Shown: one piece after another, positions 9,687 to 27,743 of the stretch | Numbering within the stretch: the first letter of the stretch is position 1 | How the letters are laid out: every line of letters starts with the position of its first letter | Origin: an uncultured Gammaproteobacteria bacterium | Lineage (GTDB): Bacteria; Patescibacteriota; Microgenomatia; UBA12405 | NCBI GenBank assembly: GCA_964502975.1 | Contig: CAZCYK010000002.1 | Span: 1 to 28,594 of the forward strand | DNA length: 28,594 nucleotides | Direction of reading: 5' to 3' | Notes under the pieces: generated by a model | The model's database searches: none | Seen by the model: only the letters and a program-made list of their open reading frames with translations | Told to the model about the DNA's origin: nothing | Made by a program: the position numbers and the translations under genes

Positions 9687-9721
9687 ACCGTAGTTATAAA
9701 ACAAATTAAGGTTGGTTTGGA

Positions 9722-9730
9722 TGGTATAAT
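9722..9730 (+). promoter_or_regulatory. Extended -10 (TGgTATAAT) 6 nt upstream of the ftsH ATG
   Basis: aTGgTATAATgggagcATG. Confidence 0.75.
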
Positions 9731-9736
9731 GGGAGC

Positions 9737-11761: not shown

Positions 11762-11805
11762 AGAAGTAGTTGAGTAGATGAATAGTATTTAGCTGAAAGA
11801 GGAGG
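11759..11805 (+). promoter_or_regulatory. 8-bp tandem tract from the ftsH stop, then an SD-like GAGGAGG (11799-11805) 7 nt before ATG 11813
   Basis: tagagaag tagttgag tagatgaa tagtattt ... GAGGAGGggaaaaaATG. Confidence 0.55.
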
Positions 11806-11812
11806 GGAAAAA

Positions 11813-14287
11813 ATGATATTATCAATCATGAAGTTTGTTGTATGGCATTATTTAATTGGATGGAAATGGTATTGGAAAAGATTTTGGTTTAATATCAAAA
11901 AAATAAGTCATTTTTTTTCTTTTGGAGTATTACTAAAAACACTATTTTCTCCTTGGAAAAGAATAACCTCGAACGATGATAAAGTTGGTTTTGACTTAGC
12001 AAAATTTTTTGAGAATTTGTCCTTAGATTTAATTTCGATATTTATTGGAGCAATAGTAAGATTAGTATTAATCGTTAGTTTTTTGATTTTAGTAATTGGA
12101 TATTGTGTATGGTCATTAATTTGGTTTTTGGTATGGTGGGCGATACCAATTTTTGGTTGGGAGTATTATCAGGCCGACAAAAAAATATCGGGTGACACAT
12201 TGCAAAATATTGGGAATAATATAAAAAATAATCCAGAGATTGCTGGCAAAATAATTTTTGAAAGTGAGGCAGGTAAATTTATTTTAGACAGAATGGAAAA
12301 TAATATTAGGGAAATTGTTGAAAACATAGAAATAAACAAAGAAGACTTGGTTGACTTTGATGATTCTACATTGGAAAAATTAGTAAGATGGTTTTTAACA
12401 AAAGCCAAGGAAGTGGAGACGGAACTTCAAAAACAGGAAACAAATACAGAAGAATTAGTTTTGGCGGCTAAATGGTGGGATAGAAGACAATTTTTTGGAG
12501 GAGAAAAAATAATGGATAAATGGGAACTAGGAAGACCAGGAATAGGCTTGGATTTGTTGTTTGGTTATACACCAAACCTAGATAAATATGGTGATGATTT
12601 GGGTATGAAACAAAAATTTTCGAGTAATTTGATTGGTAGAGAAAAAATAGTAGAAAAAATGGAAAAAATAATCAACGCTGGTAATAATATTTTGTTGGTG
12701 GGAGACCCAGGGGTAGGGAAAATGACAGTAGTCTATGAATTTGCTGATAGAGCAATTACAGGTAAGTTGGGGAAAGAATTGACATATAAAAAGCTGGTTT
12801 TGTTTGATTATAGAATGGCGATGGCAGGGAATAGTGATACTGATGCAAAAAAGAAAATATTGTCGAAATTAATGCGAGAAGCTGAGAGGGCAGGAAATAT
12901 TGTGTTAGTATTGAAAGATATTTCTCGGATTACTAATCCTGAGGTAGAAGGCAATGACTATACTGACGTAATTGAAAAAAATATGGAAAGTGGTCGATTA
13001 AAAATAATTTCGGTGGTTGATAGAGTTAGTTATGAAAGATTTTTGGCTAGTGATAGAAGAATTTTGAAAAATTTTGAAATAGTGGAAATTTTACCATCGA
13101 GCAAAGATGAGGCATTGTTGATTTTGATGCAAGCGGTTGATAGGCTTGAACTTAAAAATAATAAGATTAGATTTTCAGTACAAGCGGTTAAACAAATTTT
13201 AGAGGGAAGTGACAAGTATATTACTGATACCCCTTTTCCAGAGAAAGCTTTGGAATTGATGGAATTGGTGGTGGAAAATGAAATACTTGACGGGTCAACG
13301 ATAACAAAAAATGAAGTGAATAAAGTGTTGTCAGAAAAAACTGGAATATCAATGGTACGGTTGACTGAGTTGGAAAAAGAAAAATTGACAAATTTAGAAG
13401 AAATTATAAGTCAAAATTTGATTGGACAAAAGATGGCAGTGGACTTGGTGGCAAAAAGCTTAAGAAGTCGAGTAGTGGCATTGGGTAATGAAAAAAAACC
13501 AATTGGTTCGTTTTTGTTTTTGGGGCCAACGGGTGTGGGTAAGACAGAAATGGCAAAGGTATTGGCAGAGGTGTATTATGGGTCAAGAGAAGAGATTTTG
13601 AGATTTGATATGGCGGAATATGGGGGAAATGAGGGAATGGAGAGGTTGGTTGGATCGGTTGTTAAAAATCAGCCAGGGATAATGACTAAAGATATTAAAA
13701 ATAAACCAGCTAGTTTGTTATTGTTGGATGAAATTGAAAAAGCACCAAAAGAAATTTACAACTTGTTTTTGACAATGTTGGACGAAGGTTATATTAGTGA
13801 TGCCGCTGGAGACAAGGTTGTTTGTCGGCATTTGTTTGTGGTGGCGACATCAAACGCTGGGGCGACTTTTGTAAGAGAGGAAATAAAAAAAGGAATAACC
13901 GGGGAGGAGCTTCAAAAAAGGGTGGTGGAATATATTCAGAAAGAAGGTATTTTTTCACCAGAATTTTTGAACAGATTTGATGGGGTAGTGGTGTTTGAAC
14001 CACTGAAGCCAGAAAATTTAAAATCAATTGCTAGACTGATGTTGGATGGGTTTAAAAATGATTTGTTGAAGAAAAGCATTAATTTGGAGTTTGATGATGG
14101 GGTAGTGGAAAAATTGGCTAAAGATGGATTTGATATGGAATTTGGAGCTAGGCCGATGAGGAGAATCGTGGAATTAGTGCTGGGTGATTTGATTGGGGTA
14201 GGGATATTAAAAAATGAGATTAATGCGGGAGATAAGATAAGATTGATAGTAAGTGAGAAAAATATATTTGTAATTGAGAAAATGTAG
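11813..14287 (+). CDS. Clp/Hsp100-type double-AAA+ ATPase with an N-terminal membrane domain; NBD1 degenerate
   Basis: NBD1: LIGRE, LVGDPGVGKM, FPEKALEL. NBD2: FLFLGPTGVGKTE, RFDMAEY, LLLLDEIEKA, ATSNAG, PEFLNRFD, GARPMRR. Trp-rich hydrophobic N-terminal ~120 aa. Confidence 0.88.
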   Translation: MILSIMKFVVWHYLIGWKWYWKRFWFNIKKISHFFSFGVLLKTLFSPWKRITSNDDKVGFDLAKFFENLSLDLISIFIGAIVRLVLIVSFLILVIGYCVWSLIWFLVWWAIPIFGWEYYQADKKISGDTLQNIGNNIKNNPEIAGKIIFESEAGKFILDRMENNIREIVENIEINKEDLVDFDDSTLEKLVRWFLTKAKEVETELQKQETNTEELVLAAKWWDRRQFFGGEKIMDKWELGRPGIGLDLLFGYTPNLDKYGDDLGMKQKFSSNLIGREKIVEKMEKIINAGNNILLVGDPGVGKMTVVYEFADRAITGKLGKELTYKKLVLFDYRMAMAGNSDTDAKKKILSKLMREAERAGNIVLVLKDISRITNPEVEGNDYTDVIEKNMESGRLKIISVVDRVSYERFLASDRRILKNFEIVEILPSSKDEALLILMQAVDRLELKNNKIRFSVQAVKQILEGSDKYITDTPFPEKALELMELVVENEILDGSTITKNEVNKVLSEKTGISMVRLTELEKEKLTNLEEIISQNLIGQKMAVDLVAKSLRSRVVALGNEKKPIGSFLFLGPTGVGKTEMAKVLAEVYYGSREEILRFDMAEYGGNEGMERLVGSVVKNQPGIMTKDIKNKPASLLLLDEIEKAPKEIYNLFLTMLDEGYISDAAGDKVVCRHLFVVATSNAGATFVREEIKKGITGEELQKRVVEYIQKEGIFSPEFLNRFDGVVVFEPLKPENLKSIARLMLDGFKNDLLKKSINLEFDDGVVEKLAKDGFDMEFGARPMRRIVELVLGDLIGVGILKNEINAGDKIRLIVSEKNIFVIEKM

Positions 14288-14301
14288 TTGCAAGGAAATT
14301 T

Positions 14302-14310
14302 TGGTATAAT
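14302..14310 (+). promoter_or_regulatory. Extended -10 (TGgTATAAT) 6 nt upstream of ATG 14317
   Basis: tTGgTATAATttagatATG. Confidence 0.75.
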
Positions 14311-14316
14311 TTAGAT

Positions 14317-17300
14317 ATGAGTGAAAGAGGGCCTGAAGGGATAAAAATAACAATGGATAAATTGGCTAATTCTGCCGGCAATGAAGGAGTTAGAAAAGGA
14401 GAATTATCAGCATATGCAGAGAAAAAAAACGCAGTGTCTCAGCCTTTGGATGAAAAGGGTTATCTGGGTCCAGACTATGATAAATTTTTGAGAAGATTAG
14501 TGGTTGATGTGACGATTGGTTTAATCGATCTTGATAAAAACAGAGCAGGACATGAAGGTGAAGTTGATAGTGCTTCTGAATCTTTGGTTCGTTCTAAGTT
14601 TGGGGTGGGTAGCGTGAGTGAATTTAAGGATAGAATTGATGCTCAAAACTATAACTCTGGAGCCGTGACGAGATCTTATGAGAGGTTAACAAAATCGGTA
14701 AAATTGTTTCTTAATAAAAAAGGGTTTAGTGATGAAGCGTTGAGTACTATGTCGCCGCAAGAAATTGATGCCCAACTTTTTAGAAATTTTGAAGGGATTG
14801 GTTCGGATGTTAAAAGGGTATTGGTCGTGGATGGTCAACTGAAAACAGTTTTGAAGAAAGTCGATAATGTTCTAAATCGTGTGGAAATTTTAGATCAGGG
14901 TAGAAAGAAAAAAATGGACCTTAAAACAATTGATAAGGCTATGGATAAGGCTGAAGAAATTTTAGTTGGAAAAGCGATGGGAGATGATGCTTTGAAAAGA
15001 CAATCAGAATTGGTTATCGATTATTTGACTATATTAAAAAGAGAAGTTGATCAGGGAAAAGGAGATGCTGAAGTTGAAGATTGTATTGTGGGTTTTATCG
15101 GAGAACATATTCTAAGAAAGGGATTAACTCTTGATGATGAAGGTAATCTTAAGAGTACTAATGGAGATGATTTTACTTTATTAAAAGATGAGGAGGGAAG
15201 GACTCGGTATTATGACAATGGAGAAAAAATGTATATACATCCGGAAATAGTAAGGTGGATGAAAAAAAGAAATGAAAATATAGAGGATTTGATAATGATA
15301 ACTAGTAATGGGGAATTTAGTGATATAAGAGAGATAGACGCTGTTCTTAATAATGAGAATGAATTTATTTTGGATGATTATATTAGAAATAAGTATGTGG
15401 AAGGGAATGATTTGGGTAGAGGGAAAAAGGCGGATTTGTTGGTTATCAAAGATCAGCTGGGAAGATGGTTTTGTGATGCAATTAGAGATAGTGGTGATGA
15501 GACAAACAGAACTGTTTTGGGGACTTTAAACGCTTATAAAATTGAAAATTTATTACCCATGGGAGCAACAGGACTTGGGGTGGATATTGTTATAAATGTG
15601 TCAAATGATGTGTTGATAAGAAAAGCCCTGAAACAGGTTTGTGCTATAGATATGAAGAAAGGATCTTTGGGAGAACGAGAAAATATTGATGGTTTTTCGT
15701 CCATTGAGACTAAAAAGAACTCAATGGGAGAAATTAAAAGAATAATTGAGAAGATAACTGGCGATAATAAACGATATTTAGAGGGGGATAATAATTACCG
15801 GACAGAAGTTGACGGACTAGTAAGGCTGCTTAATGAGAGAGTTGTAAAATATGATCGATTGATTGCCCACCAAGAGAAAGTGGGTAGATATGGAGAACAG
15901 ATTCCAACTGAACCAGAACGAGTAGGAGAAAGGTTGCTGTATGCTAGAAAATTACTTGATTATGTTGAAGATAGCGGTTCTCCTCCTGGTAGTTTAAATA
16001 TTATGGATCAATGTACGAGACTATTTGAAATGTCTAGATTAGACTCTGTGGAACAAGAAATAAAAGATGAAATTCATGCGAGATTACATTTGGCTTTTAT
16101 GTTTTATCATATGCATGCTGCTGGTGGGTTGTTGAATAATAGGGGGCAGAGTATCGAAGACGCACACGAAAAGGGTTATGCAGACGGAATGTTGTTGGAC
16201 AAAATAACAATGGACTTTTTACTTAAAAATGGAGCAAATGGACTTCCGGTGGCCGAATGTTGGGATGCGATTGAAGAATTAAATTTTGGTTGGGAAAACG
16301 GAAAACCAGTTAAGGATAATGATAGTTATTTTAGGCTGTTATCGTTAATGGTTGGAATTGACTATACTAAAATTCAATATGAGAATGGGGACAGAGAGGG
16401 CAAAATCTCTTGGGAAAATAGTAAAGACGCGTCTTTGCCAATAACCGTGGATAATACAGAGGGTAAATTTCTAATTTCGATGAAAGAAAATGGTTTGAAG
16501 TTTTTGGGAGTAAAAGGAGAATTGACTGATGAAGCTTACTTGGCTAAATGGAATGAGATTGCGAACCCTTATGAAGTTAAAGAGGAACAAATTACATATA
16601 GACAAAAATTTGTGGGTGATTTTTATAAACTTCAAAATCCGGAATCCTTTTTTTGGGGAAAAGGAGCAGAAAACGCAATGAGGTTTAATTATTTTACAGA
16701 TATTAGTTCTGGTAGAAAGGGTATGGTGAAAGATTTTTTATTAACTGACATAAAAGAAAAAAGAGAAGCCAAAAATATTGGGAAATCTGAGACAGAAAAA
16801 TTGCCAACAGACAAAAAGTCTTTGGAGAAAGGTTTTGAATTGGCTGAAAAACTATTAGAAGCAACAGCTGAGACTTCGGTGTTTAATCCTTGTTTTGCGG
16901 GTCATAATGATTTTTCAGAATTGATTTTGACTGAAGCGAATACTAAGGATAGACAAAAGAAGATGAAAGTGATTGGTATGAGAGTAGCAATGGCTGATAT
17001 TGTTAGTTTTTATACTACCTGGCCAAGATACATAGCAGGCAATAAAGATAGTGATAGAAGAAGTGTGTTTAAACCACTTTATGCCGAACAAATTAAGACA
17101 GAAAGAATGGATAACCCTAAAAATGATTCTTATTTTTTGATGACGGCCATTTTGATAAAAAAGATTTTACCGGTGCAAGCATTTTTAATGAAAGAGGATA
17201 TCGGTAGTAAAGATTTATTGACGGTGGAATTTTGGAAAAAATTATATGATCCAATTTCGAAAGTAATTAGTTATGGCCAAGATGTTTTGACAGATCCTGA

Positions 17301-17643
17301 TGATGACTTCAAAACGATTAAAGTAACAGATAAAAATAAAAAAGATTTAAGTCGCAGACTTCGATTGTTAGTAGCGCGAGCAGTATTTCAATCGGCAATA
17401 AGTCCAACCAGTGATTTCGACTGGGGTGGTCTTAATTTGTTAGGTGATACATTAACAACAAAATTTACAACTGTAGACAATATTAGTGAAAAAGATGAAG
17501 AAGAAAGCTTTATTGAAAGAGAAGATAGGAGTTCATTAATAAATGATTCTGGTTTGAAAGAAGCGATGGAAGTTAAACATCAAATTTTATTGAATGCATC
17601 TAAAGAAAAGGAAAGAGATCAGATAGGTCGTGGGAGAAAATAA
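14317..17643 (+). CDS. Large (1108 aa) hydrophilic hypothetical protein; no recognised domain, signal peptide or TM
   Basis: Long uninterrupted ORF with its own -10 box; rich in K/E/D. Confidence 0.85.
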   Translation: MSERGPEGIKITMDKLANSAGNEGVRKGELSAYAEKKNAVSQPLDEKGYLGPDYDKFLRRLVVDVTIGLIDLDKNRAGHEGEVDSASESLVRSKFGVGSVSEFKDRIDAQNYNSGAVTRSYERLTKSVKLFLNKKGFSDEALSTMSPQEIDAQLFRNFEGIGSDVKRVLVVDGQLKTVLKKVDNVLNRVEILDQGRKKKMDLKTIDKAMDKAEEILVGKAMGDDALKRQSELVIDYLTILKREVDQGKGDAEVEDCIVGFIGEHILRKGLTLDDEGNLKSTNGDDFTLLKDEEGRTRYYDNGEKMYIHPEIVRWMKKRNENIEDLIMITSNGEFSDIREIDAVLNNENEFILDDYIRNKYVEGNDLGRGKKADLLVIKDQLGRWFCDAIRDSGDETNRTVLGTLNAYKIENLLPMGATGLGVDIVINVSNDVLIRKALKQVCAIDMKKGSLGERENIDGFSSIETKKNSMGEIKRIIEKITGDNKRYLEGDNNYRTEVDGLVRLLNERVVKYDRLIAHQEKVGRYGEQIPTEPERVGERLLYARKLLDYVEDSGSPPGSLNIMDQCTRLFEMSRLDSVEQEIKDEIHARLHLAFMFYHMHAAGGLLNNRGQSIEDAHEKGYADGMLLDKITMDFLLKNGANGLPVAECWDAIEELNFGWENGKPVKDNDSYFRLLSLMVGIDYTKIQYENGDREGKISWENSKDASLPITVDNTEGKFLISMKENGLKFLGVKGELTDEAYLAKWNEIANPYEVKEEQITYRQKFVGDFYKLQNPESFFWGKGAENAMRFNYFTDISSGRKGMVKDFLLTDIKEKREAKNIGKSETEKLPTDKKSLEKGFELAEKLLEATAETSVFNPCFAGHNDFSELILTEANTKDRQKKMKVIGMRVAMADIVSFYTTWPRYIAGNKDSDRRSVFKPLYAEQIKTERMDNPKNDSYFLMTAILIKKILPVQAFLMKEDIGSKDLLTVEFWKKLYDPISKVISYGQDVLTDPDDDFKTIKVTDKNKKDLSRRLRLLVARAVFQSAISPTSDFDWGGLNLLGDTLTTKFTTVDNISEKDEEESFIEREDRSSLINDSGLKEAMEVKHQILLNASKEKERDQIGRGRK

Positions 17644-17667
17644 TAATTACTAATAAATTGTCGTTTT

Positions 17668-19314
17668 TTATGTGCGTCTAGATTTTCCCTTCGGACTGTC
17701 TGGCGCAGATGATGTAGATGGTGTGGGTGATGCAGGTGATGTGGATGATTTGGAGTGGCGTGGTACATATTCTCCCTTATCTATTTTTCTATTGTTTACC
17801 CAAGTATTATATGGTGCTTTTATTCTACCCCATGCGTCATGTGCTTTCCCACCAATCATATCCTCTGCTCTCCTTTCAAGTCCACCTTTTGCAGTTTTCA
17901 TTCCGGGAAGACTGGCGTAACTATCACCGATCATTTTGTTAATCGGAGATGGTTTGATATTGAAAAGGAATTCGGGGACAATTTGGGGAATTTTGGAGAG
18001 TAACATGATACCGGTAAAACCGATTATAAAGCCGACAACTTCGCCGTTGGCAAGCATATTTGGTGCCCAAAAATAACTGTTATCGCCAGCCACAGCTCTA
18101 ACAAAAATGATTATAACTACGAGAAAAATAAGAGTGGCGGGGAAAACGACCAGATTGGCAATGAGTTGAACAATCCAAGAAGAAAAGTTTATTTTACTTC
18201 CAGGGAAAACCCCAAGAGCAATTTCTAGTGGTGCAATAACAATTTTTAAGAGGATATTTATATAGCATTTGGCTAGACCAAAAAATAATTTAACAAGTTG
18301 TATAAAAATAATTAGGTCAAGTAAAAAGAGGCCTAAAAAGGCACCAATACCACTAGATGTCATTTTGGAGAATAAACCGCCACCGGTAAAAAAACCTATA
18401 ATAAGTCCTATTATTGCGCCAAGGGATCTAAGTGTACCTTGGCTAGCTTCAGTTAAAAAGTACTTTGAGGTGATCCATTGAACCCCCCAAAAATTAAGAT
18501 TCATTATTTTGGGGACATCGTAACCGGTTATAGTATTAGCTATGGTATTAGGACCGTCACTATTATCGATTAGAGAGAGAACAATTCCTTGAAAAACATA
18601 GCTAAAATCAATTAGTAAACCAACTATGGCATAAGAAAAAGTAACAAGAATTAGAGTGATAATGATTTTTGGAATTATTACTTGGATGCTAATGGTAGCT
18701 TGAGGACTAATTTTTACTCGAAGCATGATCATTATGCCAAGAATAATAAAAAAGAGAGAAATAAGGGTATAAACAGCATTTCTTAGGGTTTTCCAAAGTG
18801 ACATAATACCGTTATTGTTGGCATTAAGAGTATCAAACCCAAAACCGTTGGCTGCGTAAGTAGGCTTGCCGAGAAAATTATCTATAGTGTGGGCAATGTA
18901 TTGAACGCCAGAAATTGGTGGCTGGTAAAGAGTAGCGATGGAATTATTGGTAAATCCAAGTAAGCCTCCTGGAACCCAGTTACCACTAGCAAGGTCTCCT
19001 TGCGTAACATCACCAATAATGCCGTTATTTAAAGAAAAAGCAGTGTTTATTATTTGTTCGTTGTTCCAAGTTTCTAGATTAAAACTTTCCCTGATGGCTT
19101 CTTGTTTGCCTAGAAGTGCTTCATTAAACTCGGTTTGATCGGAATTAATTTCAAGATCACCGTATCCTACATTTTGAGCAAAAATGTTTTTGGTTATAAA
19201 AATAGATCCAGAAATTATGGCAAAAACTAAAATAAATTTTGCTAGAGGGTTTAGACGGGGGAATAGTCGAGTGTCACGACGATTGAGATGGTTAAAAAAT
19301 CGTTTCAATTTCAT
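17668..19314 (-). CDS. Polytopic membrane protein, TrbL/VirB6-like (CPR type)
   Basis: Signal-like N-terminus ending IFA; W.TLRNAVYTLISLFFIILGIMIMLR...IPKIIITLILVTFSYAIVGLLID block; about 6-7 TMs; Ser/Pro-rich basic tail; co-oriented with the pilin array. Confidence 0.6.
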   Translation of the reverse strand: MKLKRFFNHLNRRDTRLFPRLNPLAKFILVFAIISGSIFITKNIFAQNVGYGDLEINSDQTEFNEALLGKQEAIRESFNLETWNNEQIINTAFSLNNGIIGDVTQGDLASGNWVPGGLLGFTNNSIATLYQPPISGVQYIAHTIDNFLGKPTYAANGFGFDTLNANNNGIMSLWKTLRNAVYTLISLFFIILGIMIMLRVKISPQATISIQVIIPKIIITLILVTFSYAIVGLLIDFSYVFQGIVLSLIDNSDGPNTIANTITGYDVPKIMNLNFWGVQWITSKYFLTEASQGTLRSLGAIIGLIIGFFTGGGLFSKMTSSGIGAFLGLFLLDLIIFIQLVKLFFGLAKCYINILLKIVIAPLEIALGVFPGSKINFSSWIVQLIANLVVFPATLIFLVVIIIFVRAVAGDNSYFWAPNMLANGEVVGFIIGFTGIMLLSKIPQIVPEFLFNIKPSPINKMIGDSYASLPGMKTAKGGLERRAEDMIGGKAHDAWGRIKAPYNTWVNNRKIDKGEYVPRHSKSSTSPASPTPSTSSAPDSPKGKSRRT

Positions 19315-19374
19315 TTATATATAAAATTCTAACAAAAAATAAAAGGTATAACAATCTTAGTATTTTAATTTAAA

Positions 19375-21468
19375 TTAATTTGGTGTGAGAGTTTGGTTGT
19401 TTGGGTTGGAGGGTTGGCCCTTAAAATCATCTTCATCGGTATACTCTGGAATAAAAACTGGTTCATTTGGGTCAAGATTTTGATAACAACCATAGTAGGT
19501 TTTTTGGGAATTGGTTTCTGGAGCAACTGCACGACCAACGTTTTCAAATTTTCTGCCATCAAAGAAGGGAGGGCTGGTTTGTACTTCACAAAGTTCACTA
19601 TAAATGTTGCCATCGATAATATTGTAGTTTTCGTCAACCAAAAATTGGTTTTCGGTAGAATCTACGGCGCTAGTCGAATTAGTAGTTAATCCTTTGCTTA
19701 GGGCAATTTTGTTGTCATGTAAAGAAACACAGCGAAAAACTTGTTGGCCAGCATTTTTGAAATCAATAGTGAATGGGGTATAACCCGTGGCATGGTTTTG
19801 GAGTAAAATTGAAATGGTCTTTTTTTCTCTCTCAAATTGTTGTTTATCTCTGGAATCGAAAAGATTGTTACGACAGGGAATGATTAGTGACCTCCAGGCT
19901 TCGACATGCCAGCCGTTGAATATTTCGGCAATACCATATAAATAGTTGTCGACCGACATAGTGACGGCATAGGTACAGCTTCCGTTCCATTTATCTTTTA
20001 GCTCGTTCCAAACTTCTTTTGGATTATTAATATTGGAGGTGAGATTAATTCCTTTATTTTGCATGTCTTCAGCCCAAAGTTTTTGTTCACTTTCTGATTT
20101 ATTGTCGAATTCGGCTTCGGTTCCAGGCCAATTATCTTGACAATTGTAGTTTGGATCTTCGGGTTGTTGCCAATCTACACTGCTTTTTGCTTGGGCGATG
20201 TTAATAATTTCGTATTTAATTTCACTGTCGTATGAATTGGCTAGTTTAATACAATTTTGATATTTTTCTTTACTGTTTGCTGGAGTATCTATATTGTTTC
20301 CGTCACCATTGTGTTCCCAGTGATCAAGAAGGTAAATTTTTACTTGATAGTATTGGGTGCTAAAATTGGGAATTTTATAGATAGACTTATCTTCGCCAAA
20401 ATAACTTTTAAGAATTTTTTGGTGACTGTAGCCAAGCATGGCCATGCCGAAAGCACCGTATTGGCTATAACCTTCAGTAAATGTTTCCTTTTCGAGTCTT
20501 TTGGCATCACAGTAAGCGTCATTGAGTTTATATTCTTTTGCCAAATCAGTAGAGTCTTTGGGAAGGCTGGATTTTTGCCATTTTTTGGAGATAATCCAGT
20601 TTTTCCAAGATTCGCGTAGATATTCGCGATTTTTGTCTTTATCTTTTGGATTGCCTTCGTTGTTAGTATCATTGGAAACGCAGGGAATATAGCCATGACC
20701 TGATTTGGGTATTACCCCCAATGTTCCATATTTGTCTTGTTTGTCATTATCTGCCCCTACTGCAAGAGCTTCTGATGATGTTTTATTATCGGTGGGAGCG
20801 TCTTGACCTTGCCCTTTTTTTGCTATGGAATAACGTAAGATATTGTTAAGCTGGTTACTAACTCCGGTCGCGGCATCTTTGGCTCCCGCAAAATAGCCTT
20901 TAGGAACATCTTGGTAATTTGTATAAAGATTTTGATAACAAATATCAGGATTGGAGAGTTCCTTTTCACAGTTAAGTGGACTTATGTTGTTAAGCTCTTC
21001 GTCGTCATATTCAATTGCTACACGATTGTTACGTTTGTAGAGAATTTTTTCATCACGTTTTTTATGAAAACAGATTATGTCATTAATACTAATATCTTGG
21101 GGGCAGTTGGTTTTGTCGTCGATGGGAAGAGCTTCGTTTTTTTTGTTTTTTCCAAACAAATCAGTAGTAAGAATTTCATAAAACCAGACTCCTCTTTGGT
21201 ATCTTTTTAGGGCTTCAGGGGTAATCCTGTTGGCTACATCTTGGTTTTCAGCGGTATAATCGGTGTGTGAGTCTTTTTGGTCTAAAACAGAAGGGTTGGC
21301 ATTGTTGGTTATATGAGAAATGTTTTCTCCAAAAATACGTTCAAAAACTCTGGTTATCCAAACCCAAATAGTTTCTCCGCCTTCTTGATTATCAGTTGCA
21401 AAAATAGTAGTGGGTAGACTAATGAAAAAAGAGAGAAAAATAAGAAAAACAAGTAACTTTTTTTTCAT
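19375..21468 (-). CDS. Secreted Cys-containing protein (697 aa) with SpoIID/LytB-like motifs in permuted order
   Basis: ATG 21468 overlaps the upstream pilin stop (TAATG) and gives a clean signal peptide MKKKLLVFLIFLSFFISLPTTIFA; EGYSQYGAFGMAMLGYSHQKILKSYF and MSVDNYLYGIAEIFNGWHVEAWRS. Confidence 0.7.
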   Translation of the reverse strand: MKKKLLVFLIFLSFFISLPTTIFATDNQEGGETIWVWITRVFERIFGENISHITNNANPSVLDQKDSHTDYTAENQDVANRITPEALKRYQRGVWFYEILTTDLFGKNKKNEALPIDDKTNCPQDISINDIICFHKKRDEKILYKRNNRVAIEYDDEELNNISPLNCEKELSNPDICYQNLYTNYQDVPKGYFAGAKDAATGVSNQLNNILRYSIAKKGQGQDAPTDNKTSSEALAVGADNDKQDKYGTLGVIPKSGHGYIPCVSNDTNNEGNPKDKDKNREYLRESWKNWIISKKWQKSSLPKDSTDLAKEYKLNDAYCDAKRLEKETFTEGYSQYGAFGMAMLGYSHQKILKSYFGEDKSIYKIPNFSTQYYQVKIYLLDHWEHNGDGNNIDTPANSKEKYQNCIKLANSYDSEIKYEIINIAQAKSSVDWQQPEDPNYNCQDNWPGTEAEFDNKSESEQKLWAEDMQNKGINLTSNINNPKEVWNELKDKWNGSCTYAVTMSVDNYLYGIAEIFNGWHVEAWRSLIIPCRNNLFDSRDKQQFEREKKTISILLQNHATGYTPFTIDFKNAGQQVFRCVSLHDNKIALSKGLTTNSTSAVDSTENQFLVDENYNIIDGNIYSELCEVQTSPPFFDGRKFENVGRAVAPETNSQKTYYGCYQNLDPNEPVFIPEYTDEDDFKGQPSNPNNQTLTPN

Positions 21469-21842
21469 TATTGAGCGTCGGGGATAGTAAAATCGGTAAC
21501 ATTGACCCCAGTGAATTCTTTGATAAACAATAAAATTAACCAAGAGACAAGAACACCGATTATACCGATAAAAGACATTGTAATAGTGTGGCTGGCAGCA
21601 GCAGCTTTTTTGGGATCACCACCTGAAGTGATATATTTAAAACCGCCAACCAGAAACATGGCAAAAAAAGTAAGACCGGCAAGGGGAACAATAACTTGGA
21701 GAATATTTTGGAAAAGACATTCGAAACCTTGGATGGTGGCGACGTCTTTATTTTCACCAGCAACACATTTTCCATCTAGCATTTCTTTCCACTGTTCTGC
21801 GAAAACAGGGGAGGGAGAGAAAAAATTAGTTAAGTGGTTCAT
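21468..21842 (-). CDS. VirB2/TrbC-like pilin-family membrane protein P8
   Basis: Two hydrophobic helices around GGFKYITSGGDPKKAAAASHTIT. Confidence 0.8.
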   Translation of the reverse strand: MNHLTNFFSPSPVFAEQWKEMLDGKCVAGENKDVATIQGFECLFQNILQVIVPLAGLTFFAMFLVGGFKYITSGGDPKKAAAASHTITMSFIGIIGVLVSWLILLFIKEFTGVNVTDFTIPDAQ

Positions 21843-21848
21843 AAATTA

Positions 21849-21854
21849 ATTATA
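21849..21854 (-). promoter_or_regulatory. -10 box TATAAT 6 nt upstream of the P8 ATG
   Basis: Minus strand: cctgTATAATtaatttATG. Confidence 0.65.
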
Positions 21855-21889
21855 CAGGAGAAATTGCTCTTAAAAAATAGAACTTGAAA

Positions 21890-22588
21890 CTATTCTTGAT
21901 AAAAAGGCTGGATAATTAGATTCGTAAAGTCAAATCCAAAAACAGTGCTAATAAGTCGCATGAGAGCCCAAGCGATAAAAACTATAGTTAGACCAATTAG
22001 GCCATGGGTAATAGAGGTCCGTGCGGCTGCTAGTTTTTTTTCGTCACCACTGGAGGTAATCCACTTGATACCACCAAAAAGAAGAATAAAAAAGAAAGTG
22101 ATAGAAGCAATGATATAAATAATATTTACCGCGGTGGAAATCATGCTTCCCGAAGTGATTGTTCCGAGCCCCGAAAAATTCCCTGGGGCATTAAGATCAA
22201 TTATGTCGTCGGAGGTTGAGTTGTTAGGAGAAGAACTACCACCAGTACTATTTGGGTCAGATTCCGGGGTACATTCTCTTTTTCCGCTTTCACACCCATT
22301 AGGGCAATTTGTTTTTTGCCAAGTTCCATCATCTCTACAAGTACGGAGTTCGCTTGCGGAGGAGTAACAAAATGAAAAACCGACATCATAATTGGATTTT
22401 CCATCGGTAGTACACATGTTTTTACAGGTCCATTTGCTTCCGTTTCGGGAACAAGATTCAGCACTTCCATAATTTGTGTCACTACATTGGCATACTTCGA
22501 CCCCTTTAACCGGAGAGATAAAAATTAGGGTGAAAATAAAAATTGTTAAAAAAACTGTTAAAAAATTTTTTATTATTATTAATTTCAT
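21890..22588 (-). CDS. Pilin-family protein P7 with a signal peptide and a 10-Cys N-terminal domain
   Basis: Classical signal peptide; ten Cys in ~80 aa; Ser-rich linker; core GGIKWITSSGDEKKLAAARTSITHG. Confidence 0.8.
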   Translation of the reverse strand: MKLIIIKNFLTVFLTIFIFTLIFISPVKGVEVCQCSDTNYGSAESCSRNGSKWTCKNMCTTDGKSNYDVGFSFCYSSASELRTCRDDGTWQKTNCPNGCESGKRECTPESDPNSTGGSSSPNNSTSDDIIDLNAPGNFSGLGTITSGSMISTAVNIIYIIASITFFFILLFGGIKWITSSGDEKKLAAARTSITHGLIGLTIVFIAWALMRLISTVFGFDFTNLIIQPFYQE

Positions 22589-22697
22589 TTTAGTAAGTCA
22601 AGAGTATTAAAGACTGGTTTATAACTGAATTATACTAGAATTAATAAAAATAAAAATTGTTAAATTATTGATAGTGAATAAATTAATACAAATTAAC

Positions 22698-22729
22698 AAA
22701 ATCCCTCTTCAAAACAAAAGAGGGGTTTT
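22698..22729 (-). terminator. Intrinsic terminator-like hairpin downstream of P6, possibly bidirectional
   Basis: aaaatCCCTCTTcaaaacaaAAGAGGGgtttt; T-tracts on both strands. Confidence 0.65.
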
Positions 22730-22754
22730 AGATTTCTAGTTTTTAAATTATTTA

Positions 22755-23159
22755 TTAGATTTTTGGAGGTACTAAAGCAGGAACTGCAAGCTGAAAAAAA
22801 TCAACTTGGAAAACGGCGCCAAGAAGTCTCATTATCGCCCAAGCGGCAAAGACAATGGCTAAACCAACCATGCCACTAGTTATAGAAGCACGAGCAGCAG
22901 CGACTTTTTTCTCGTCTCCACCAGAGGTTATCCACTTGATACCACCTCCAACTAGGACAAAAAAGAAAATTAGTGAAGTAATAATAAAAACTATGGACAT
23001 TAACCAGCCCAATATTTGACCGAATGTCAGACCGGCGATGCCTGAAAATGCACTACCTTCAGGTAACTCCGTTTTTAGTTCGGTAGCTAGATCTGTTGCC
23101 GCATAAGCTGGAATAGCAAATGAAGCAAGGTATGATTTATTTTTTATTTTTCCAATCAT
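22755..23159 (-). CDS. VirB2/TrbC-like pilin-family protein P6
   Basis: GGGIKWITSGGDEKKVAAARASITSG between two hydrophobic helices; leader ends AIPAYA. Confidence 0.82.
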   Translation of the reverse strand: MIGKIKNKSYLASFAIPAYAATDLATELKTELPEGSAFSGIAGLTFGQILGWLMSIVFIITSLIFFFVLVGGGIKWITSGGDEKKVAAARASITSGMVGLAIVFAAWAIMRLLGAVFQVDFFQLAVPALVPPKI

Positions 23160-23254
23160 TTTTTGTTTATAATTAATAATTAACTAATATTAACAGTAAT
23201 CTTTATGGTTTGTAAAGTGGCTTGTAAGTTTTTTAATATTATTTTTTAATTAAA

Positions 23255-23689
23255 TTAGACAGGGTTGGTGGGGTTGGGGTTTAAAAAACTGGGTATATTG
23301 AGTTGAAGGATATTGATACCAAAAAGTAATTCAATAACTTTTAGAATTACCCAGGAACTAAAAATAATAATTAAACCGACAAGCCCGTGGGTTATTTGGC
23401 CGCGGGCAGTAGTAAGTTTTTTTTCGTCACCAGATGAAACGATCCATCGGTAACCTCCAGTAAGAAGAATTAAAAAGAAAACGATAGTAGTAATAGTGAG
23501 AGCAAGGCTAATAGTTCCGGATATAAAATTTTTTGGGGTAATTGTTGTAAGATTTTTAAAATCACCACCCACACCAAGCTGGAGTTTGTCAGTAGTAGTG
23601 TTGGCCTCTCCCTCATCGGCATAAATAACTGGAGGGAAAGGAATGATCGCATATATTATTTTATTTTTAATTGAATTGAAATTAATCAT
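23255..23689 (-). CDS. VirB2/TrbC-like pilin-family protein P5
   Basis: GGYRWIVSSGDEKKLTTARGQITHG. ATG 23689 (8 nt after the P4 stop) is preferred over the overlapping TTG 23716. Confidence 0.8.
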   Translation of the reverse strand: MINFNSIKNKIIYAIIPFPPVIYADEGEANTTTDKLQLGVGGDFKNLTTITPKNFISGTISLALTITTIVFFLILLTGGYRWIVSSGDEKKLTTARGQITHGLVGLIIIFSSWVILKVIELLFGINILQLNIPSFLNPNPTNPV

Positions 23690-23697
23690 AGTGAATA

Positions 23698-24069
23698 TTA
23701 TAATAAGTTTGGCCAAGCGATTTCTAAAGTTTCTAGGCCATTAATTCCAAAAACAATACCGATGAATTTTAATATTACAAAAATAGAAAAGACAACGACA
23801 ACACCGACTACTGAATAAGTGAGTGATTTTTGGGCTTCTTCCCATTTTTTGGGATCGCCTTGAGAAGAAATCATATGGTAAGCAGACATAACAACGTGCC
23901 AAATAAAATAAATGACTCCGACCATAATAAAAAGAGTCACAATGGTTTGGATGACATTATTGGTGTAAACGATGGGTGAATTGGCGATTTTATTTTTTGC
24001 TGAATCAGTATCGCATCCTGGTTCGAGAATGGGGTTGCAGACAGCGTAAATTGATTTTATTAGTTGCAT
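23698..24069 (-). CDS. VirB2/TrbC-like pilin-family protein P4
   Basis: SAYHMISSQGDPKKWEEAQKSLT; N-terminal Cys pair. Confidence 0.8.
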   Translation of the reverse strand: MQLIKSIYAVCNPILEPGCDTDSAKNKIANSPIVYTNNVIQTIVTLFIMVGVIYFIWHVVMSAYHMISSQGDPKKWEEAQKSLTYSVVGVVVVFSIFVILKFIGIVFGINGLETLEIAWPNLL

Positions 24070-24070
24070 A

Positions 24071-24433
24071 TTATTGTTCTAATTGTGGTGATAAATTTTC
24101 AAAAATTTTTTCTAAATTGAAGATATTTTCAATACCAAAAAGATTGGCGAGAAGGGCAGTAATGCCGAAAGCGATAACAACTATGGTAATACCCAAAATT
24201 CCATCGGTAAGTCGTTTGCGGGCGGATTCAATTTTCTTTTCATCACCTTGGGCGGATAAAAATGAATAACCAGCAAAAATAACTTGGAGAACAAAAAAGA
24301 TAAAAGCAACAAGGGTTAGAACACCTATGACTGTGGAAATAATTTTGTCAAGTTCAGTAACTCCATAGTCATCCCCTGTCACATTAATTCCGACTCTACT
24401 TTCTAATTTTATCGCTAATAGATTAGATTTCAT
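24071..24433 (-). CDS. VirB2/TrbC-like pilin-family protein P3
   Basis: AGYSFLSAQGDEKKIESARKRLTDG. Confidence 0.8.
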   Translation of the reverse strand: MKSNLLAIKLESRVGINVTGDDYGVTELDKIISTVIGVLTLVAFIFFVLQVIFAGYSFLSAQGDEKKIESARKRLTDGILGITIVVIAFGITALLANLFGIENIFNLEKIFENLSPQLEQ

Positions 24434-24436
24434 AAT

Positions 24437-24790
24437 TTATTCGTAAACAGGTGTGATAACAGGATCAAGAATGTTGTTCATACCAACTAGTCTGCCAATA
24501 ACTGCGGTAAGAACAAAGGCACTGGAAACGATAACTAAACCAATAATACTTTGGTAAATTTTGGCCCAAGCGGCTTCAGTTTTTTTTGGGTCACCGCTGG
24601 CAGATATATAAGCAAAACCAGCTAGAAGAATTTGAATTACAAAGAAGACGCCAGCGACAACCCCAACGAGACTAAATAACCGATTTAATAAAATAAATAT
24701 TCCACCTCCTTGATCACCTTCTATATAGGCCTCGTCAATAAGCGGAGTTAAGACTTCTGGGGGGGTAATTTCTCCAAATATTGATAACAT
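24437..24790 (-). CDS. VirB2/TrbC-like pilin-family protein P2
   Basis: AGFAYISASGDPKKTEAAWAKIYQSIIG. Confidence 0.8.
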   Translation of the reverse strand: MLSIFGEITPPEVLTPLIDEAYIEGDQGGGIFILLNRLFSLVGVVAGVFFVIQILLAGFAYISASGDPKKTEAAWAKIYQSIIGLVIVSSAFVLTAVIGRLVGMNNILDPVITPVYE

Positions 24791-24812
24791 ATGTTGATTA
24801 TAACTGAGTATC

Positions 24813-25154
24813 TTATGGCAATAAAGGGTTTAATATTCGCAAACCAGTGACGGTTTGGATTATTTGAATAATAAAATAGGCACAAAAAACAACTAAAAAA
24901 CCAATAACTGCACTAGTAATGGTTTTTTTTGATTGTTCGGCTTTTTTACTGTCACCTGAACCAGCACTAGCAATCATATTGAAACCACCAAAAAGAACAA
25001 GACCAAGAAGGATAATACCAGCGACAACAATTGCGTTGGTAAGAAGTGAACTAATAAGAGGGGAAATGCTGGTATATTTGTCAATGGTATTATTGCTATT
25101 ACCTCCAAGTGGTAATTTACCAATGTCAACAGCAATTAACAAACGTTTGTTCAT
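24813..25154 (-). CDS. VirB2/TrbC-like pilin-family protein P1
   Basis: GGFNMIASAGSGDSKKAEQSKKTITSAVIG. Confidence 0.8.
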   Translation of the reverse strand: MNKRLLIAVDIGKLPLGGNSNNTIDKYTSISPLISSLLTNAIVVAGIILLGLVLFGGFNMIASAGSGDSKKAEQSKKTITSAVIGFLVVFCAYFIIQIIQTVTGLRILNPLLP

Positions 25155-25161
25155 TGAAGAA

Positions 25162-25167
25162 ATTATA
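25162..25167 (-). promoter_or_regulatory. -10 box TATAAT 7 nt upstream of the P1 ATG
   Basis: Minus strand: agaTATAATttcttcaATG. Confidence 0.65.
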
Positions 25168-25244
25168 TCTAAACTTGATTAAAAAAGCGAATAAGAAAAA
25201 TAGGGAGTTGATTTGTTAAAAATAGTGTTATAATACGCCACTTT

Positions 25245-25294: not shown

Positions 25295-26173
25295 ATGAAA
25301 AAAACTGCCCCATTAATAATAGTATTTGGTATTTGGTATTTAGTATTTAGTATAAGACCAATTGAGGCGATAACAAAAACTACTACACCTATCGTGGAGA
25401 TCACTCCAGTAGCGACAGTAACAGCAACGGTGATACCCGAACCGACTATAGTAGTCAATAATATTACGGAACCTCAAGGGAAAGAAATTGAAATTAAAGA
25501 AGTAAAATGGAATGGATTTAATACTTTTAAGGTAGCTATAAATTGGGCAGTAAAACACGGAGTGTCGACGAATACTTTAGTGTTATTGTTCTTGTTGCCT
25601 TTGGTGGCAACACTAGTTTCGTTTTTGCATTATGTGGTGGGACTGTCAGGATATGGAATATTTATGCCAACAATGATTGCAATTGCTTTTTTGGCAACTG
25701 GAATTTTTGGAGGATTGATATTATTTAGTTTGATTTTAGTAATATCTTTGGTTAGCAATATGGTGTTGCGCAAGTTTAAGCTTCATTTTTGGCCAGCTAG
25801 ATCAATTAGTTTGATGTTTATTTCGATTGGTACTTTTGTATTGATGATGTTGTCTTCTTTTGTTAATTCGATTGATATTAGTAAAATTTCGATTTTTCCA
25901 ATATTGTTTATGATTTTGTTGACTGAGGAATTTAGTCGAACTCAATTGGCGAAAAGTAAAAAAGAAGCGAAGAAATTAACAATTGGGACGGTGGTATTGG
26001 CAATTACTGGAGCAGGGGTAATGAATTTTTCGCTAGTTCAAGAAACAGTGTTGAAATATCCTGATGCAATGATAGTAATAGTACTAGTAATTAATTTATT
26101 GGTGGGGAATTATACTGGGATTAGATGGTCAGAGATTGGGAGATTTAAGAAAGGAATAAGAAATAAAAACTAG
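25295..26173 (+). CDS. 7TM protein of the ATP-grasp-associated (7TM_transglut-like) family, with a signal peptide and Thr/Pro/Val-rich stalk but no transglutaminase domain
   Basis: LVLLFLLPLVATLVSFLHYVVGLSGYGIFMPTMIAIAFLATGIFGG motif; directly upstream of the alpha-L-glutamate-ligase-like gene. Confidence 0.75.
   Translation: MKKTAPLIIVFGIWYLVFSIRPIEAITKTTTPIVEITPVATVTATVIPEPTIVVNNITEPQGKEIEIKEVKWNGFNTFKVAINWAVKHGVSTNTLVLLFLLPLVATLVSFLHYVVGLSGYGIFMPTMIAIAFLATGIFGGLILFSLILVISLVSNMVLRKFKLHFWPARSISLMFISIGTFVLMMLSSFVNSIDISKISIFPILFMILLTEEFSRTQLAKSKKEAKKLTIGTVVLAITGAGVMNFSLVQETVLKYPDAMIVIVLVINLLVGNYTGIRWSEIGRFKKGIRNKN
25320..25354 (+). repeat. 7-bp tandem repeat inside the CDS, encoding the signal-peptide h-region VFGIWYLVFSI
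   Basis: tagtatt tggtatt tggtatt tagtatt tagtata, the same unit as intergenic 2317-2351. Confidence 0.8.
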
Positions 26174-26205
26174 ATTTAAGGTTTAAGAAATTAGATTTAA
26201 GAATA
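26171..26205 (+). repeat. 7-bp tandem tract starting at the 7TM stop codon
   Basis: tagattt aaggttt aagaaat tagattt aagaata. Confidence 0.65.
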
Positions 26206-26208
26206 ATT

Positions 26209-27582
26209 ATGTTAAATTTAAAAAAATATCGAAGGTTTTTGACCAAAAATGAGCGGAATAAGGTTTATTTGAGGAAAAACACAGCCAAGGGTAGAACAAT
26301 TGCTGATAGTAAATATAGAACAAAGAAATTGTTGGCCAAAAAGGGTGTGGGGGTACCGGCTTTGATAGCTAGGTTTAAAAATGAGACAGATTTGATAAAT
26401 TTTAGATGGGAAAATTTGGAAGGTAATTTTGTGATTAAACCAGAATCGGGTTATGGTGGTGAGGGAATTATTATTGTTCGGAAAAGAGGAAAATGGGCGG
26501 GAGAATGGCAAAAAATGAATGGAGAAAAAATTACTACCCAGGATTTACAACTTCATTGTCAGGAAATATTGGCTGGTAAATATAGTTTACATTCGATGAA
26601 GGATACAGTATTGGTAGAAGAGAGAATTAAAATTCATCCTTTGTTTTTGGCGCTTACACGATCGGGAACACCAGATATCCGGGTGATTGTTTATAATAAA
26701 GTACCAGTGATGGCAATGTTTAGAATTCCAACTGAAAAATCGGGAGGTAAGGCAAATTTACACCAGGGAGCAATTGGGTTGGGAGTGGATTTGGCTACCG
26801 GAATTACCACTTTTGGAGTGGAAAAAGGAGTGCCGATTTACCGAATATATGATTTTAATAAAAAGAAAAAACGAAAAGTGAATGGAATAAAGATTCCTTT
26901 TTGGAGAGAGATATTGGAAACTGCGGTAAAGTGTCAATTGGCAATACCAAGTCTCGGGTTTATGGGGGTGGATGTAGTACTAGACAAGGAAAAAGGACCA
27001 GAAGTGTTGGAGGTAAATGCTCGGCCTGGTCTGTCAATCCAACTTTGCAATATGGCTGGGCTAAAAGGTCGGATAGAAAAAGTGGATGAAATTGAAGTAA
27101 GAAATGTGGACCATGCGATTACTTTGGCAAAGTATCTTTTTGGAGAAAAGTTTTTTGTAAAAATTGAAGAAAAAGAGAAAAATAGAACAATTGATTCGGT
27201 GGAGACGATAAGGGTGAAAATCCCTAAAGGTTTTGATCTAAAAGATGAGAATATAAAAATTATTAAAAAAGGGAAACACCGGATGGTAGAAGTGGAGGCA
27301 AAAATTGATACTGGAGCCTTGAGAAGTTCGATAGATGAAAGTTTGGCTAAACAATTGGGATTGTTGGTTGAGGATAAAATATTGTATTATCGTCACTATC
27401 GATCGGCTTTGGCTAAGTCGCATGAAAGACCGGTAATTGGGATAAATTTTTGGTTAAAAGGGAAGAAAATTTCAACAACGGTTAATGTGGCTAGTAGAGA
27501 AGGGTTGACGGCTAGATTTTTGATTGGAAGGAGAGATTTAGATGGGTTTTTAATAAAGGCAAAAGGAAATGAGAAGAAATAA
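26209..27582 (+). CDS. Alpha-L-glutamate-ligase-related ATP-grasp (ATPgrasp_ST type) fused to a C-terminal retropepsin-like RimK-associated peptidase domain
   Basis: NERN...ADSKYRTKKLL, FVIKPESGYGGEGI, GTPDIRVIV..VPVMAMFRIPTEKSGGKANLHQGA, LEVNARPGL; C-terminal AKIDTGA...ERPV...LIGRRDL. Confidence 0.85.
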   Translation: MLNLKKYRRFLTKNERNKVYLRKNTAKGRTIADSKYRTKKLLAKKGVGVPALIARFKNETDLINFRWENLEGNFVIKPESGYGGEGIIIVRKRGKWAGEWQKMNGEKITTQDLQLHCQEILAGKYSLHSMKDTVLVEERIKIHPLFLALTRSGTPDIRVIVYNKVPVMAMFRIPTEKSGGKANLHQGAIGLGVDLATGITTFGVEKGVPIYRIYDFNKKKKRKVNGIKIPFWREILETAVKCQLAIPSLGFMGVDVVLDKEKGPEVLEVNARPGLSIQLCNMAGLKGRIEKVDEIEVRNVDHAITLAKYLFGEKFFVKIEEKEKNRTIDSVETIRVKIPKGFDLKDENIKIIKKGKHRMVEVEAKIDTGALRSSIDESLAKQLGLLVEDKILYYRHYRSALAKSHERPVIGINFWLKGKKISTTVNVASREGLTARFLIGRRDLDGFLIKAKGNEKK

Positions 27583-27634
27583 AATAGAATGTTTAAATTT
27601 TTTACTTGATAATGATTTTTTATTATTTTCTTTG

Positions 27635-27721
27635 AAAAATTCTCGTTACGAATTTTTTCACTGGAAAATGAGTCTGCGTAGCAGGCTCAAAAACGTTCAA
27701 AAACTGTAACTTCGAATTTTT
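27635..27721. repeat. Long imperfect hairpin element (copy E), homolog of 3763-3850
   Basis: aaaaattc-TC-gttac...gtaac-TTC-gaattttt; inner stem gagtctgc/gcaggctc; preceded at 27604-27621 by acttgataatgatttttt, identical to the 5' arm of copy A. Confidence 0.8.
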
Positions 27722-27743
27722 ATTTATATAATTATTAAAATTT

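Follow-up and report, generated by a model that had tools for sequence, protein, structure and literature searches.

A putative exported protein with a probable circularly permuted SpoIID-like module, encoded directly after a VirB2-like pilin gene array in Patescibacteria

The 28,594 nucleotide (nt) contig CAZCYK010000002.1 (GenBank assembly GCA_964502975.1), analysed over its full length and referred to here as the window, was found to carry on its reverse strand a gene (19375..21468, stop codon at 19375-19377) for a 697 amino acid (aa) protein, predicted to be exported and to consist of an N-terminal module followed by a module that resembles SpoIID with its parts in permuted order. Directly upstream and in the same orientation are eight genes for VirB2-like pilins (21468..25154; T4SS_pilin, PF18895, in Pfam), an array also present in relatives, and directly downstream on the same strand is the gene for its syntenic partner, a 548 aa polytopic membrane protein (17668..19314). 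As the few named homologues of this adjoining membrane protein are from Candidatus Shapirobacteria, sequence comparison places the source organism as putatively Shapirobacteria-like, a group taken here to belong to the Microgenomates/Microgenomatia part of the Patescibacteria. DNA of the window is present in wastewater, manure and bioreactor metagenomes.

Translation of the open reading frame (ORF; 19375..21468, reverse strand) gives a protein that starts MKKKLLVFLIF. The ATG at 21468, and not a TTG further upstream, was assigned as the start codon because MKKK opens all eight close homologues and because this ATG shares a nucleotide with the stop codon that ends the pilin gene before it (TAATG). 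Residues 1-24, MKKKLLVFLIFLSFFISLPTTIFA (21397..21468, reverse strand), which are followed by TDN, have on inspection the form of a Sec signal peptide, and this type of N-terminus is common to all homologues, such that the window protein is likely to be exported by a Sec-type route. Export alongside pilins, which the original prediction for this DNA had proposed, is consistent with the signal peptide-like N-terminus and with the translational coupling to the last of the eight PF18895 genes. Its count of 13 Cys residues in the protein was also correct.

The eight homologues recovered in the first search included two, P0008 and P0009, that were the most distant and that contain a PF08486 (SpoIID) domain and a C-terminal PF02557 (VanY) domain. 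Both carry a textbook GHGRGMSQYGA motif upstream of a near-textbook YLLGLxEI...ETHKAQTVAART motif, and a graded series of relatives runs from the window protein up to proteins above the Pfam SpoIID cut-off. PF08486 matches 35 of the 54 relatives assembled, and 15 of the 54 have a C-terminal VanY-type peptidase that is closest to the LD-carboxypeptidases LdcB/DacB. One Pfam SpoIID-positive relative with near-canonical motifs, P0035, shares only ~23% identity with the window protein; its gene occupies the same slot, hence the window gene is its diverged positional orthologue.

The best-conserved part of the family is the N-terminal ~300 aa. This N-module (aa ~30-303; 20560..21381, reverse strand) has conserved Cys122, Cys167, Cys177, Cys263, Tyr182, Pro189 and Ser204 in the family alignments and is carried by 47 proteins, and the window protein belongs to this pilin array-associated family both by homology over aa ~1-303 and by gene position. 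The region had originally been described as ~300 aa without recognisable similarity, and this description held, as no Pfam match was obtained in any of the 54 members and no PDB match was obtained by sequence. In two relatives the slot after the pilin array is filled by a protein that comprises the N-module only (L012:7114-8136, 340 aa, and L014:9078-9929 of GCA_028710865.1, 283 aa), and hhalign matched the N-module to the former with a probability of 100% (E 9e-51) and to the latter with 98.6% (E 8e-16). Because some orthologues consist of the N-module only, this module is, judged from the alignments, the constant component of the locus and the conserved family core rather than an appendage, to which individual lineages have added, at the C-terminal end, a permuted SpoIID module, alone or together with VanY.

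Canonical SpoIID has its catalytic block at the N-terminal and the GHGxGMSQ block at the C-terminal end, and the window protein has the reverse order. The GHG-type motif EGYSQYGAFGMAMLGYSHQKILKSYFG occupies aa 332-358 (nt 20395-20475) and the catalytic-type motif MSVDNYLYGIAEIFNGWHVEAWRSLI aa 504-529 (nt 19882-19959), the coordinates originally given being right to within 1-2 nt, and the C-terminal-type block precedes the catalytic-type block by 172 aa. Sub-models (sub-HMMs, from hidden Markov models) of canonical SpoIID recognised both blocks in the window protein alone, 'ghg' at 333-358 (E 1.3e-7) and 'cat' at 502-625 (E 2.8e-6), and TIGR02669 (SpoIID_LytB) matched aa 333-358 only, on positions 239-264 of its 270 (E 9e-6). 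A PDB sequence search with the single protein returned nothing for SpoIID, and a family profile was needed. The profile of nine proteins (A1) matched the solved SpoIID chains 5i1t, 5txu and 4rwr with E ~2e-12 in reversed order, profile positions 320-356 falling on SpoIID 292-327 and 451-596 on 28-174, while the profile of 54 sequences (A3) matched 4rwr, 5i1t and 5txu with E values of 5.5e-29 (4rwr) to 2.7e-25, again as two reversed stretches. Comparison of the family with 26 canonical SpoIIDs in hhalign aligned window residues 500-630 with canonical 66-179 (probability 99.3%, E 1e-20) and 326-370 with canonical 285-326 (98.1%, E 1e-13), and the first 325 aa of the window protein matched no part of SpoIID. 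Thus, the reversed motif order reported in the original prediction was recovered both against solved SpoIIDs and by hhalign.

On this basis the window protein passes as a SpoIID relative by profile-level homology of the catalytic/middle and C-terminal GHG blocks and fails by canonical block order. The block homologous to the C-terminal end of canonical SpoIID, 'GHGxGMSQxGA...ILxxYY', here reads TEGYSQYGAFGMA, with the His lost (aa 326-365; 20374..20493, reverse strand), as delimited by profile and sub-HMM matches, hhalign and the predicted structure. The block with homology to the catalytic/middle part (aa 498-630 for canonical 66-179; 19579..19977, reverse strand) was delimited by profiles, hhalign and sub-HMMs. 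Between them is an insertion (aa ~381-497; 19978..20328, reverse strand) with conserved Cys406 and Cys443, defined from the family alignment, sub-HMM spacing and the model. It is specific to the window subfamily (P0001-P0007 and P0027), in which ~120 aa are inserted and the blocks are spaced by 144 aa, versus 15-40 aa in short members of the family.

The classical test for circular permutation, alignment with hhalign to a tandem-doubled canonical SpoIID profile, gave collinear alignments across the junction, with the GHG block in copy 1 and the catalytic block in copy 2, for 12 short family members (E 4.5e-32 over 136 columns; 2.7e-19 for the catalytic block alone) and for 17 Actinomycetota-type proteins (E 3.6e-67 over 302 columns). 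With the 120 aa insertion of the window protein retained as match columns, no hhalign alignment spanned the junction. Rescoring of 'de-permuted' versions of the window protein, P0008 and P0009 against TIGR02669 brought no gain and is uninformative, as HMMER sums local pieces regardless of their order. The circular permutation that had been proposed from motif order is therefore borne out for the short orthologues and for the Actinomycetota-type group, and it is very likely that the second module of the window protein (module 2) is a permuted SpoIID homologue.

The spread of the permuted form was assessed in an exhaustive search of representative proteins, which returned 2006 proteins at E<=0.001 with 37 cluster representatives at E<1e-30, and with sub-HMMs built from four parts of the canonical alignment (N-beta, catalytic/middle, C-beta and GHG), which served to classify block order in 158 proteins, 143 of them classifiable. 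The order was canonical in 61/143, and the GHG block preceded the catalytic block in 82/143, 36 with the N-terminal module of the window family and 46 without it. No canonical C-beta region was detected by these sub-HMMs in any protein of the window family, so that its SpoIID part is trimmed, and the canonical stretch between 'SGGxTE' and 'GHG' is missing from module 2. In 20 proteins the order is ghg-cat-Cb and the GHG block lies at a distance of 25-60 aa from the N-terminus, an arrangement in which the last strand and helices of SpoIID have apparently been moved cleanly to the front; one of them, P0073, is NCBI MDI6689734.1, annotated 'SpoIID/LytB domain-containing protein [Actinomycetota bacterium]'. 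A 976 aa protein, P0068, has the tandem arrangement cat(198-296)-ghg(336-380)-cat(493-599)-Cb(611-718), which looks like the intermediate to be expected had the permuted forms originated through duplication followed by trimming.

A second architecture, an N-terminal coiled coil followed by a permuted SpoIID, was seen in P0157/P0158, where HHKGMSQYGA is upstream of YLKGIAEMP...EALKAQAVAAR and PF24161 comes next (precomputed for P0157 only); copies of P0157 are found in NCBI records. A homologue search seeded with an alignment of 42 sequences added only two proteins, the A1 profile recovered only canonical SpoIIDs of Firmicutes from species-representative genomes, and a full-text literature search found no paper mentioning permuted SpoIID. 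The permuted variant of SpoIID/LytB is widespread, apparently undescribed and not peculiar to the window gene.

AlphaFold with 54 sequences gave a model of the 697 residues with a mean predicted local distance difference test score (pLDDT) of 83.1 and a predicted template modelling score (pTM) of 0.82; with nine sequences the model was unusable (pLDDT 39.6). In this prediction both modules belong to a single rigid body. In the model the GHG block forms a strand (334-335), two helices (336-344 and 349-357) and a strand (362-365) with pLDDT 92-95, and the catalytic block a strand (498-505), a helix (506-511), a loop with Glu515 and a helix (522-538) with pLDDT ~90-96. This pattern of secondary structure in both blocks is presumably that of canonical SpoIID. 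A Foldseek search with the full AlphaFold model found no match to SpoIID or to anything else, and such programs align in sequence order. The pLDDT of the N-module is mostly 83-97, and since the Foldseek search was negative this means a well-predicted module, within the limits of a model, for which no structural relative was detected. All solved structures that match the family profiles have the canonical order. A weak match was also seen between A3 positions 301-343, in the region of the GHG block, and residues 337-380 of PDB 9h68_A, 'spore cortex-lytic enzyme pre-pro-form' (E 0.014), and may hint at a helix-helix element shared with another family of wall hydrolases.

Residue conservation was computed over 103-105 SpoIID/LytB proteins from outside the window family. 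By residue count along the A1 profile alignment, Glu515 (codon 19924..19926, reverse strand, as originally located) lies opposite Glu101 of Clostridioides difficile SpoIID, the catalytic residue (PMC6221140), in agreement with the earlier claim that the catalytic Glu is retained. In Bacillus subtilis the equivalent residue is Glu88, residue numbers for this species being in part after PMC6635528. Seven of the eight positions that are invariant in the outside proteins are kept in the window protein, namely Q, G and I of the ghg block and Y, G, E and R of the cat block. The last of these is Arg533 (codon 19870..19872, reverse strand), the invariant Arg of 'AAR(T)', at Glu+18, a spacing taken to equal that of E88 and R106 in B. 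subtilis. The eighth is the Gln of 'KAQ', present in 103/103 outside proteins and replaced by Leu528 (codon 19885..19887, reverse strand). The His of GHG (95% outside the family) and SGG (92%) are lost as well, such that in the near-invariant set of GHG His, KAQ Gln, AAR Arg and SGG only Arg533 is retained. The replacement of ALKAQAVAART by AWRSLIIPCRN (aa 524-534), already noted in the original prediction, is seen in the family alignments.

Both the GHG His and the KAQ Gln are present in 118 proteins and lost in 15, only Gln is lost in four and only His in seven, several of these seven being fragments, and every loss of Gln falls within the window family. The window subfamily has the most degraded motifs of the family. 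Both altered motifs are nearly identical among its members, which share 45-58% identity, and the site is for this reason still constrained, whether for catalysis or binding. Catalytic activity of the subfamily is uncertain because the GHG His and the otherwise invariant KAQ Gln have been lost.

The locus has a conserved arrangement, in which a divergent ATP-grasp and 7TM_transglut pair, the pilin array, the window gene and the membrane protein gene follow one another, and all relatives looked at show it as well (L001, L007, L009, L010/L011, L012/L013 and L014), the synteny of the window gene with array and membrane protein gene being counted in seven loci. Facing genes across the locus are a convergent ORF of 800-1110 aa, a ClpB-like gene (called in three loci), FtsH and DUF4012. 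The membrane protein, 63% identical between the window and L007, always follows a SpoIID-like or N-module gene and has at least 683 homologues, with ~40 residues invariant across 36 of them; it has no Pfam and no PDB match. Its assignment as VirB6-like was not adopted, as only its position suggests it. In one Joint Genome Institute (JGI) record a homologue is called 'cell division protein FtsL', a name that seems spurious. An extra 586 aa Big_2 protein is encoded between the N-module gene and the membrane protein gene in L012 and L013.

Within the array, the pilin gene at 21890-22588 (232 aa) has a cysteine-rich extension of ~120 aa before the pilin core, and a terminator-like hairpin was observed at 22724-22703 (reverse strand), between the third-last and second-last pilin genes; promoter and terminator scans of the locus were at chance level. 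Convergent on the pilin operon is a 1108 aa ORF (14317-17643, forward strand) with no Pfam or NCBIfam match, and an ORF of 785-1110 aa is found in the same place in L001, L010, L012 and L014. On the other side, the 7TM_transglut membrane protein and the sugar-transfer-associated ATP-grasp protein (25295-27582, forward strand) are without exception encoded next to the pilin array in divergent orientation (also in L009, L010, L012 and L014) and are followed in relatives by RimK-like ligases and a GH18 chitinase-like gene, all of which may belong to the same functional neighbourhood as the array.

The GC skew of the forward strand is very strong, +0.3 to +0.5, in 1-17000 and 26000-28594, where genes are on this strand, and ~+0.0 to +0.15 in 17600-25200, where they are on the other, and a large strand-specific component, probably related to replication, seems to add to the coding-strand bias. 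The genes yidC and jag, which are usually found near the replication origin, are at 966-2310 and suggest that the origin is close. Type IV secretion system (T4SS) genes are often near the origin (PMC12102498).

The same survey from 2025 described VirB2-like pilin genes in arrays of 2-11, above all in Microgenomatia and Saccharimonadia, and reported that most genomes with such arrays are without VirB1, the role of which may be taken over by other glycosidases, and that VirB6 is undetectable in Microgenomatia (PMC12102498). In this context it is probable, though far from settled, that the window gene encodes a Sec-exported two-module protein and that its permuted SpoIID module serves the pilin array and membrane partner by local remodelling of the wall. 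Module 1 (aa ~30-303), which contains Cys residues, is the constant element of a gene that in Shapirobacteria-like Patescibacteria is always found after the array of VirB2-like pilins. The second module (aa ~326-660) is very probably a trimmed, permuted homologue of the SpoIID/LytB domain, in which the strand-helix-helix GHG element has come to stand ahead of the catalytic helix and first beta-strand. On the outer side of the membrane this module would bind the glycan strands of peptidoglycan and probably still cleave them, and relatives with an LdcB-like module would also trim stem peptides. A fused peptidase would make mechanistic sense because SpoIID requires denuded strands, which are made by SpoIIP (PMC6221140). 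The outcome would be local opening or remodelling of the wall for the pilin array and membrane partner, the role played elsewhere by VirB1, PrgK, TraG and CwlT. Separately, the chance that the window protein works with the pilin array is put at about even, and that module 2 is still a glycan-cleaving enzyme, rather than a binding or scaffolding derivative, at slightly less than even.

Several observations weigh against this proposal. The orthologues with module 1 only imply that the wall-active module is dispensable for the function of the locus, and the VanY module is absent from the window protein and its subfamily. The His of GHG, the Gln of KAQ and the glycines of SGG are gone from the window protein, and the co-occurrence of the His and Gln losses is as expected from decay of an active site. 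It fails the curated cut-offs for membership: PF08486 gave no match for the protein alone at E<=1, and the TIGR02669 score is 25.8 bits for a cut-off of 83.3. In the 28.6-kb window only the VirB2-like pilins are recognisable, with no VirB4, VirD4 or recognisable VirB6, and metatranscriptome contigs from the same wastewater study do not cover the locus and are uninformative.

The main rival explanation is that module 2 is a catalytically dead derivative, glycan-binding or partner-activating in the manner of LytB/CwbA, which tethers or positions the N-module and pilus machinery in the wall or activates a separate hydrolase and does no cutting itself. This was judged unlikely, although of the alternatives it survives best. 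It would account for the loss of the His, Gln and SGG glycines, for the co-occurrence of the first two, for the accompanying loss of the VanY partner domain and for scores under every curated family cut-off. However, no loss of the catalytic Glu is seen where the motif is reliably placed in the family alignment, the two alignments disagreeing for P0033 and P0024; Arg533 and the Y-L-G and SQ-GA positions are retained; and near-invariance of the degraded motifs within the subfamily favours a constrained site over decay.

A distinctly less probable explanation is that the protein is an offensive effector, delivered or presented by the pilin/T4SS-like apparatus of an episymbiont to cut the wall of its host bacterium. 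In the single Patescibacteria system put to the test, epibiotic growth depends on T4SS components, and the diversification of the pilin arrays is like that of systems that interact with hosts (PMC12102498); moreover, glycan-cutting and peptide-cutting modules are combined in relatives and the changes in the substrate groove are subfamily-specific. Against this, the N-terminus is of the ordinary Sec type and a T4SS substrate signal was not recognised, the source organism comes without information on host or lifestyle, and the present evidence does not distinguish its own wall from a foreign one as the target. A related conjecture, rated lower still, is that the N-module and the trimmed permuted SpoIID block form an unseen single fold that is the missing wall-breaching part of a VirB2-like pilus, its groove re-tooled by loss of His and Gln and gain of Trp, Cys and Tyr for another glycan, such as that of the wall of an epibiont's host.

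It was also considered that the two blocks are relics of two SpoIID copies, the GHG-like block coming from a decayed first copy and the downstream block from a second copy without its C-terminus, so that they would not fold together. The tandem arrangement in P0068 shows that duplications occur, and no SpoIID-like domain was recovered from the model by Foldseek. This origin was nevertheless rejected as very improbable, since the 300 aa before the GHG block have no similarity to any part of SpoIID in hhalign (probability 1.7%), the short members with closely spaced blocks are collinear on the doubled profile, the N-terminal position of the GHG block in the Actinomycetota-type proteins leaves no room for a relic domain, and the pTM of 0.82 with pLDDT >90 in both blocks indicates one rigid body. 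A resemblance to SpoIID that is due only to short motifs matching by chance, as the lack of a Pfam match for the window protein alone might suggest, is practically excluded by the hhalign E values of 1e-20 and 1e-13, the match to a solved SpoIID at 5.5e-29, the doubled-template results and the graded series of relatives.

The interpretation given in the original prediction is therefore supported at the level of sequence. The SpoIID/LytB lytic transglycosylase domain appears to occur naturally in two circularly permuted forms; the permuted one is common in metagenomes and among annotated proteins, is under-detected by domain models built on the canonical order, and is represented by no solved structure among the matching PDB chains. 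A permuted SpoIID, with or without a peptidase, is tied to pilin arrays of Patescibacteria that are otherwise without VirB1, and a family encoded right after the array, often with both glycan-cutting and peptide-cutting modules, is a testable candidate for the missing VirB1-type function. Also of interest are the re-tooled or decayed active site of the window subfamily and the ~300 aa N-module, which is confidently predicted, has no structural analogue and marks the locus.

Among known proteins the closest comparison is with SpoIID of Bacillus and Clostridioides (4RWR, 5I1T and 5TXU; PF08486, TIGR02870). Shared features are the homology of both blocks, the catalytic Glu (E88/E101) with an Arg 18 residues further on, and an extracytoplasmic location; in addition, relatives of the window protein combine the domain with an activity against peptides, much as SpoIID acts together with SpoIIP. 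Unlike SpoIID, the window protein has swapped blocks, no SGGxTE-GHG region, an insertion of ~120 aa and losses at GHG His, KAQ Gln and SGG, and it has a signal peptide and a 300 aa module in place of the N-terminal membrane anchor and no sporulation context. B. subtilis LytB (CwbA) is a SpoIID/LytB-domain enhancer of the amidase LytC. It likewise has this domain alongside a peptide-cleaving wall hydrolase and offers a possible model for a non-catalytic role, but its block order is canonical and it has wall-binding repeats and no pilus context.

VirB1, PrgK, TraG (pIP501) and CwlT are, like the window protein, encoded in a machinery cluster with local opening of the wall as the proposed role, and T4SS hydrolases of monoderms are often bifunctional, with a glycan-cutting and a peptidase domain, as are P0008, P0009 and P0013. 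These enzymes have SLT/lysozyme-like, CHAP or NlpC/P60 domains, and the likeness is one of function and context, with no relation in sequence. In Pfam no SLT/lysozyme-like or CHAP domain was found in the window protein or its relatives, and no VirB4 is encoded in the window, so that it does not qualify as VirB1-type either by domain or by location in a T4SS cluster with VirB4.

The permuted proteins P0073 (MDI6689734.1), P0139, P0109, P0120, P0148 and P0157/P0158 differ from the window protein in having all canonical segments (ghg, N-beta, cat and C-beta), canonical active-site residues and other accessory domains, and they have neither the N-module nor any known link to pilin arrays. They have the same GHG-before-catalytic order as the window protein and show that the SpoIID/LytB domain has a permuted form well established in nature.

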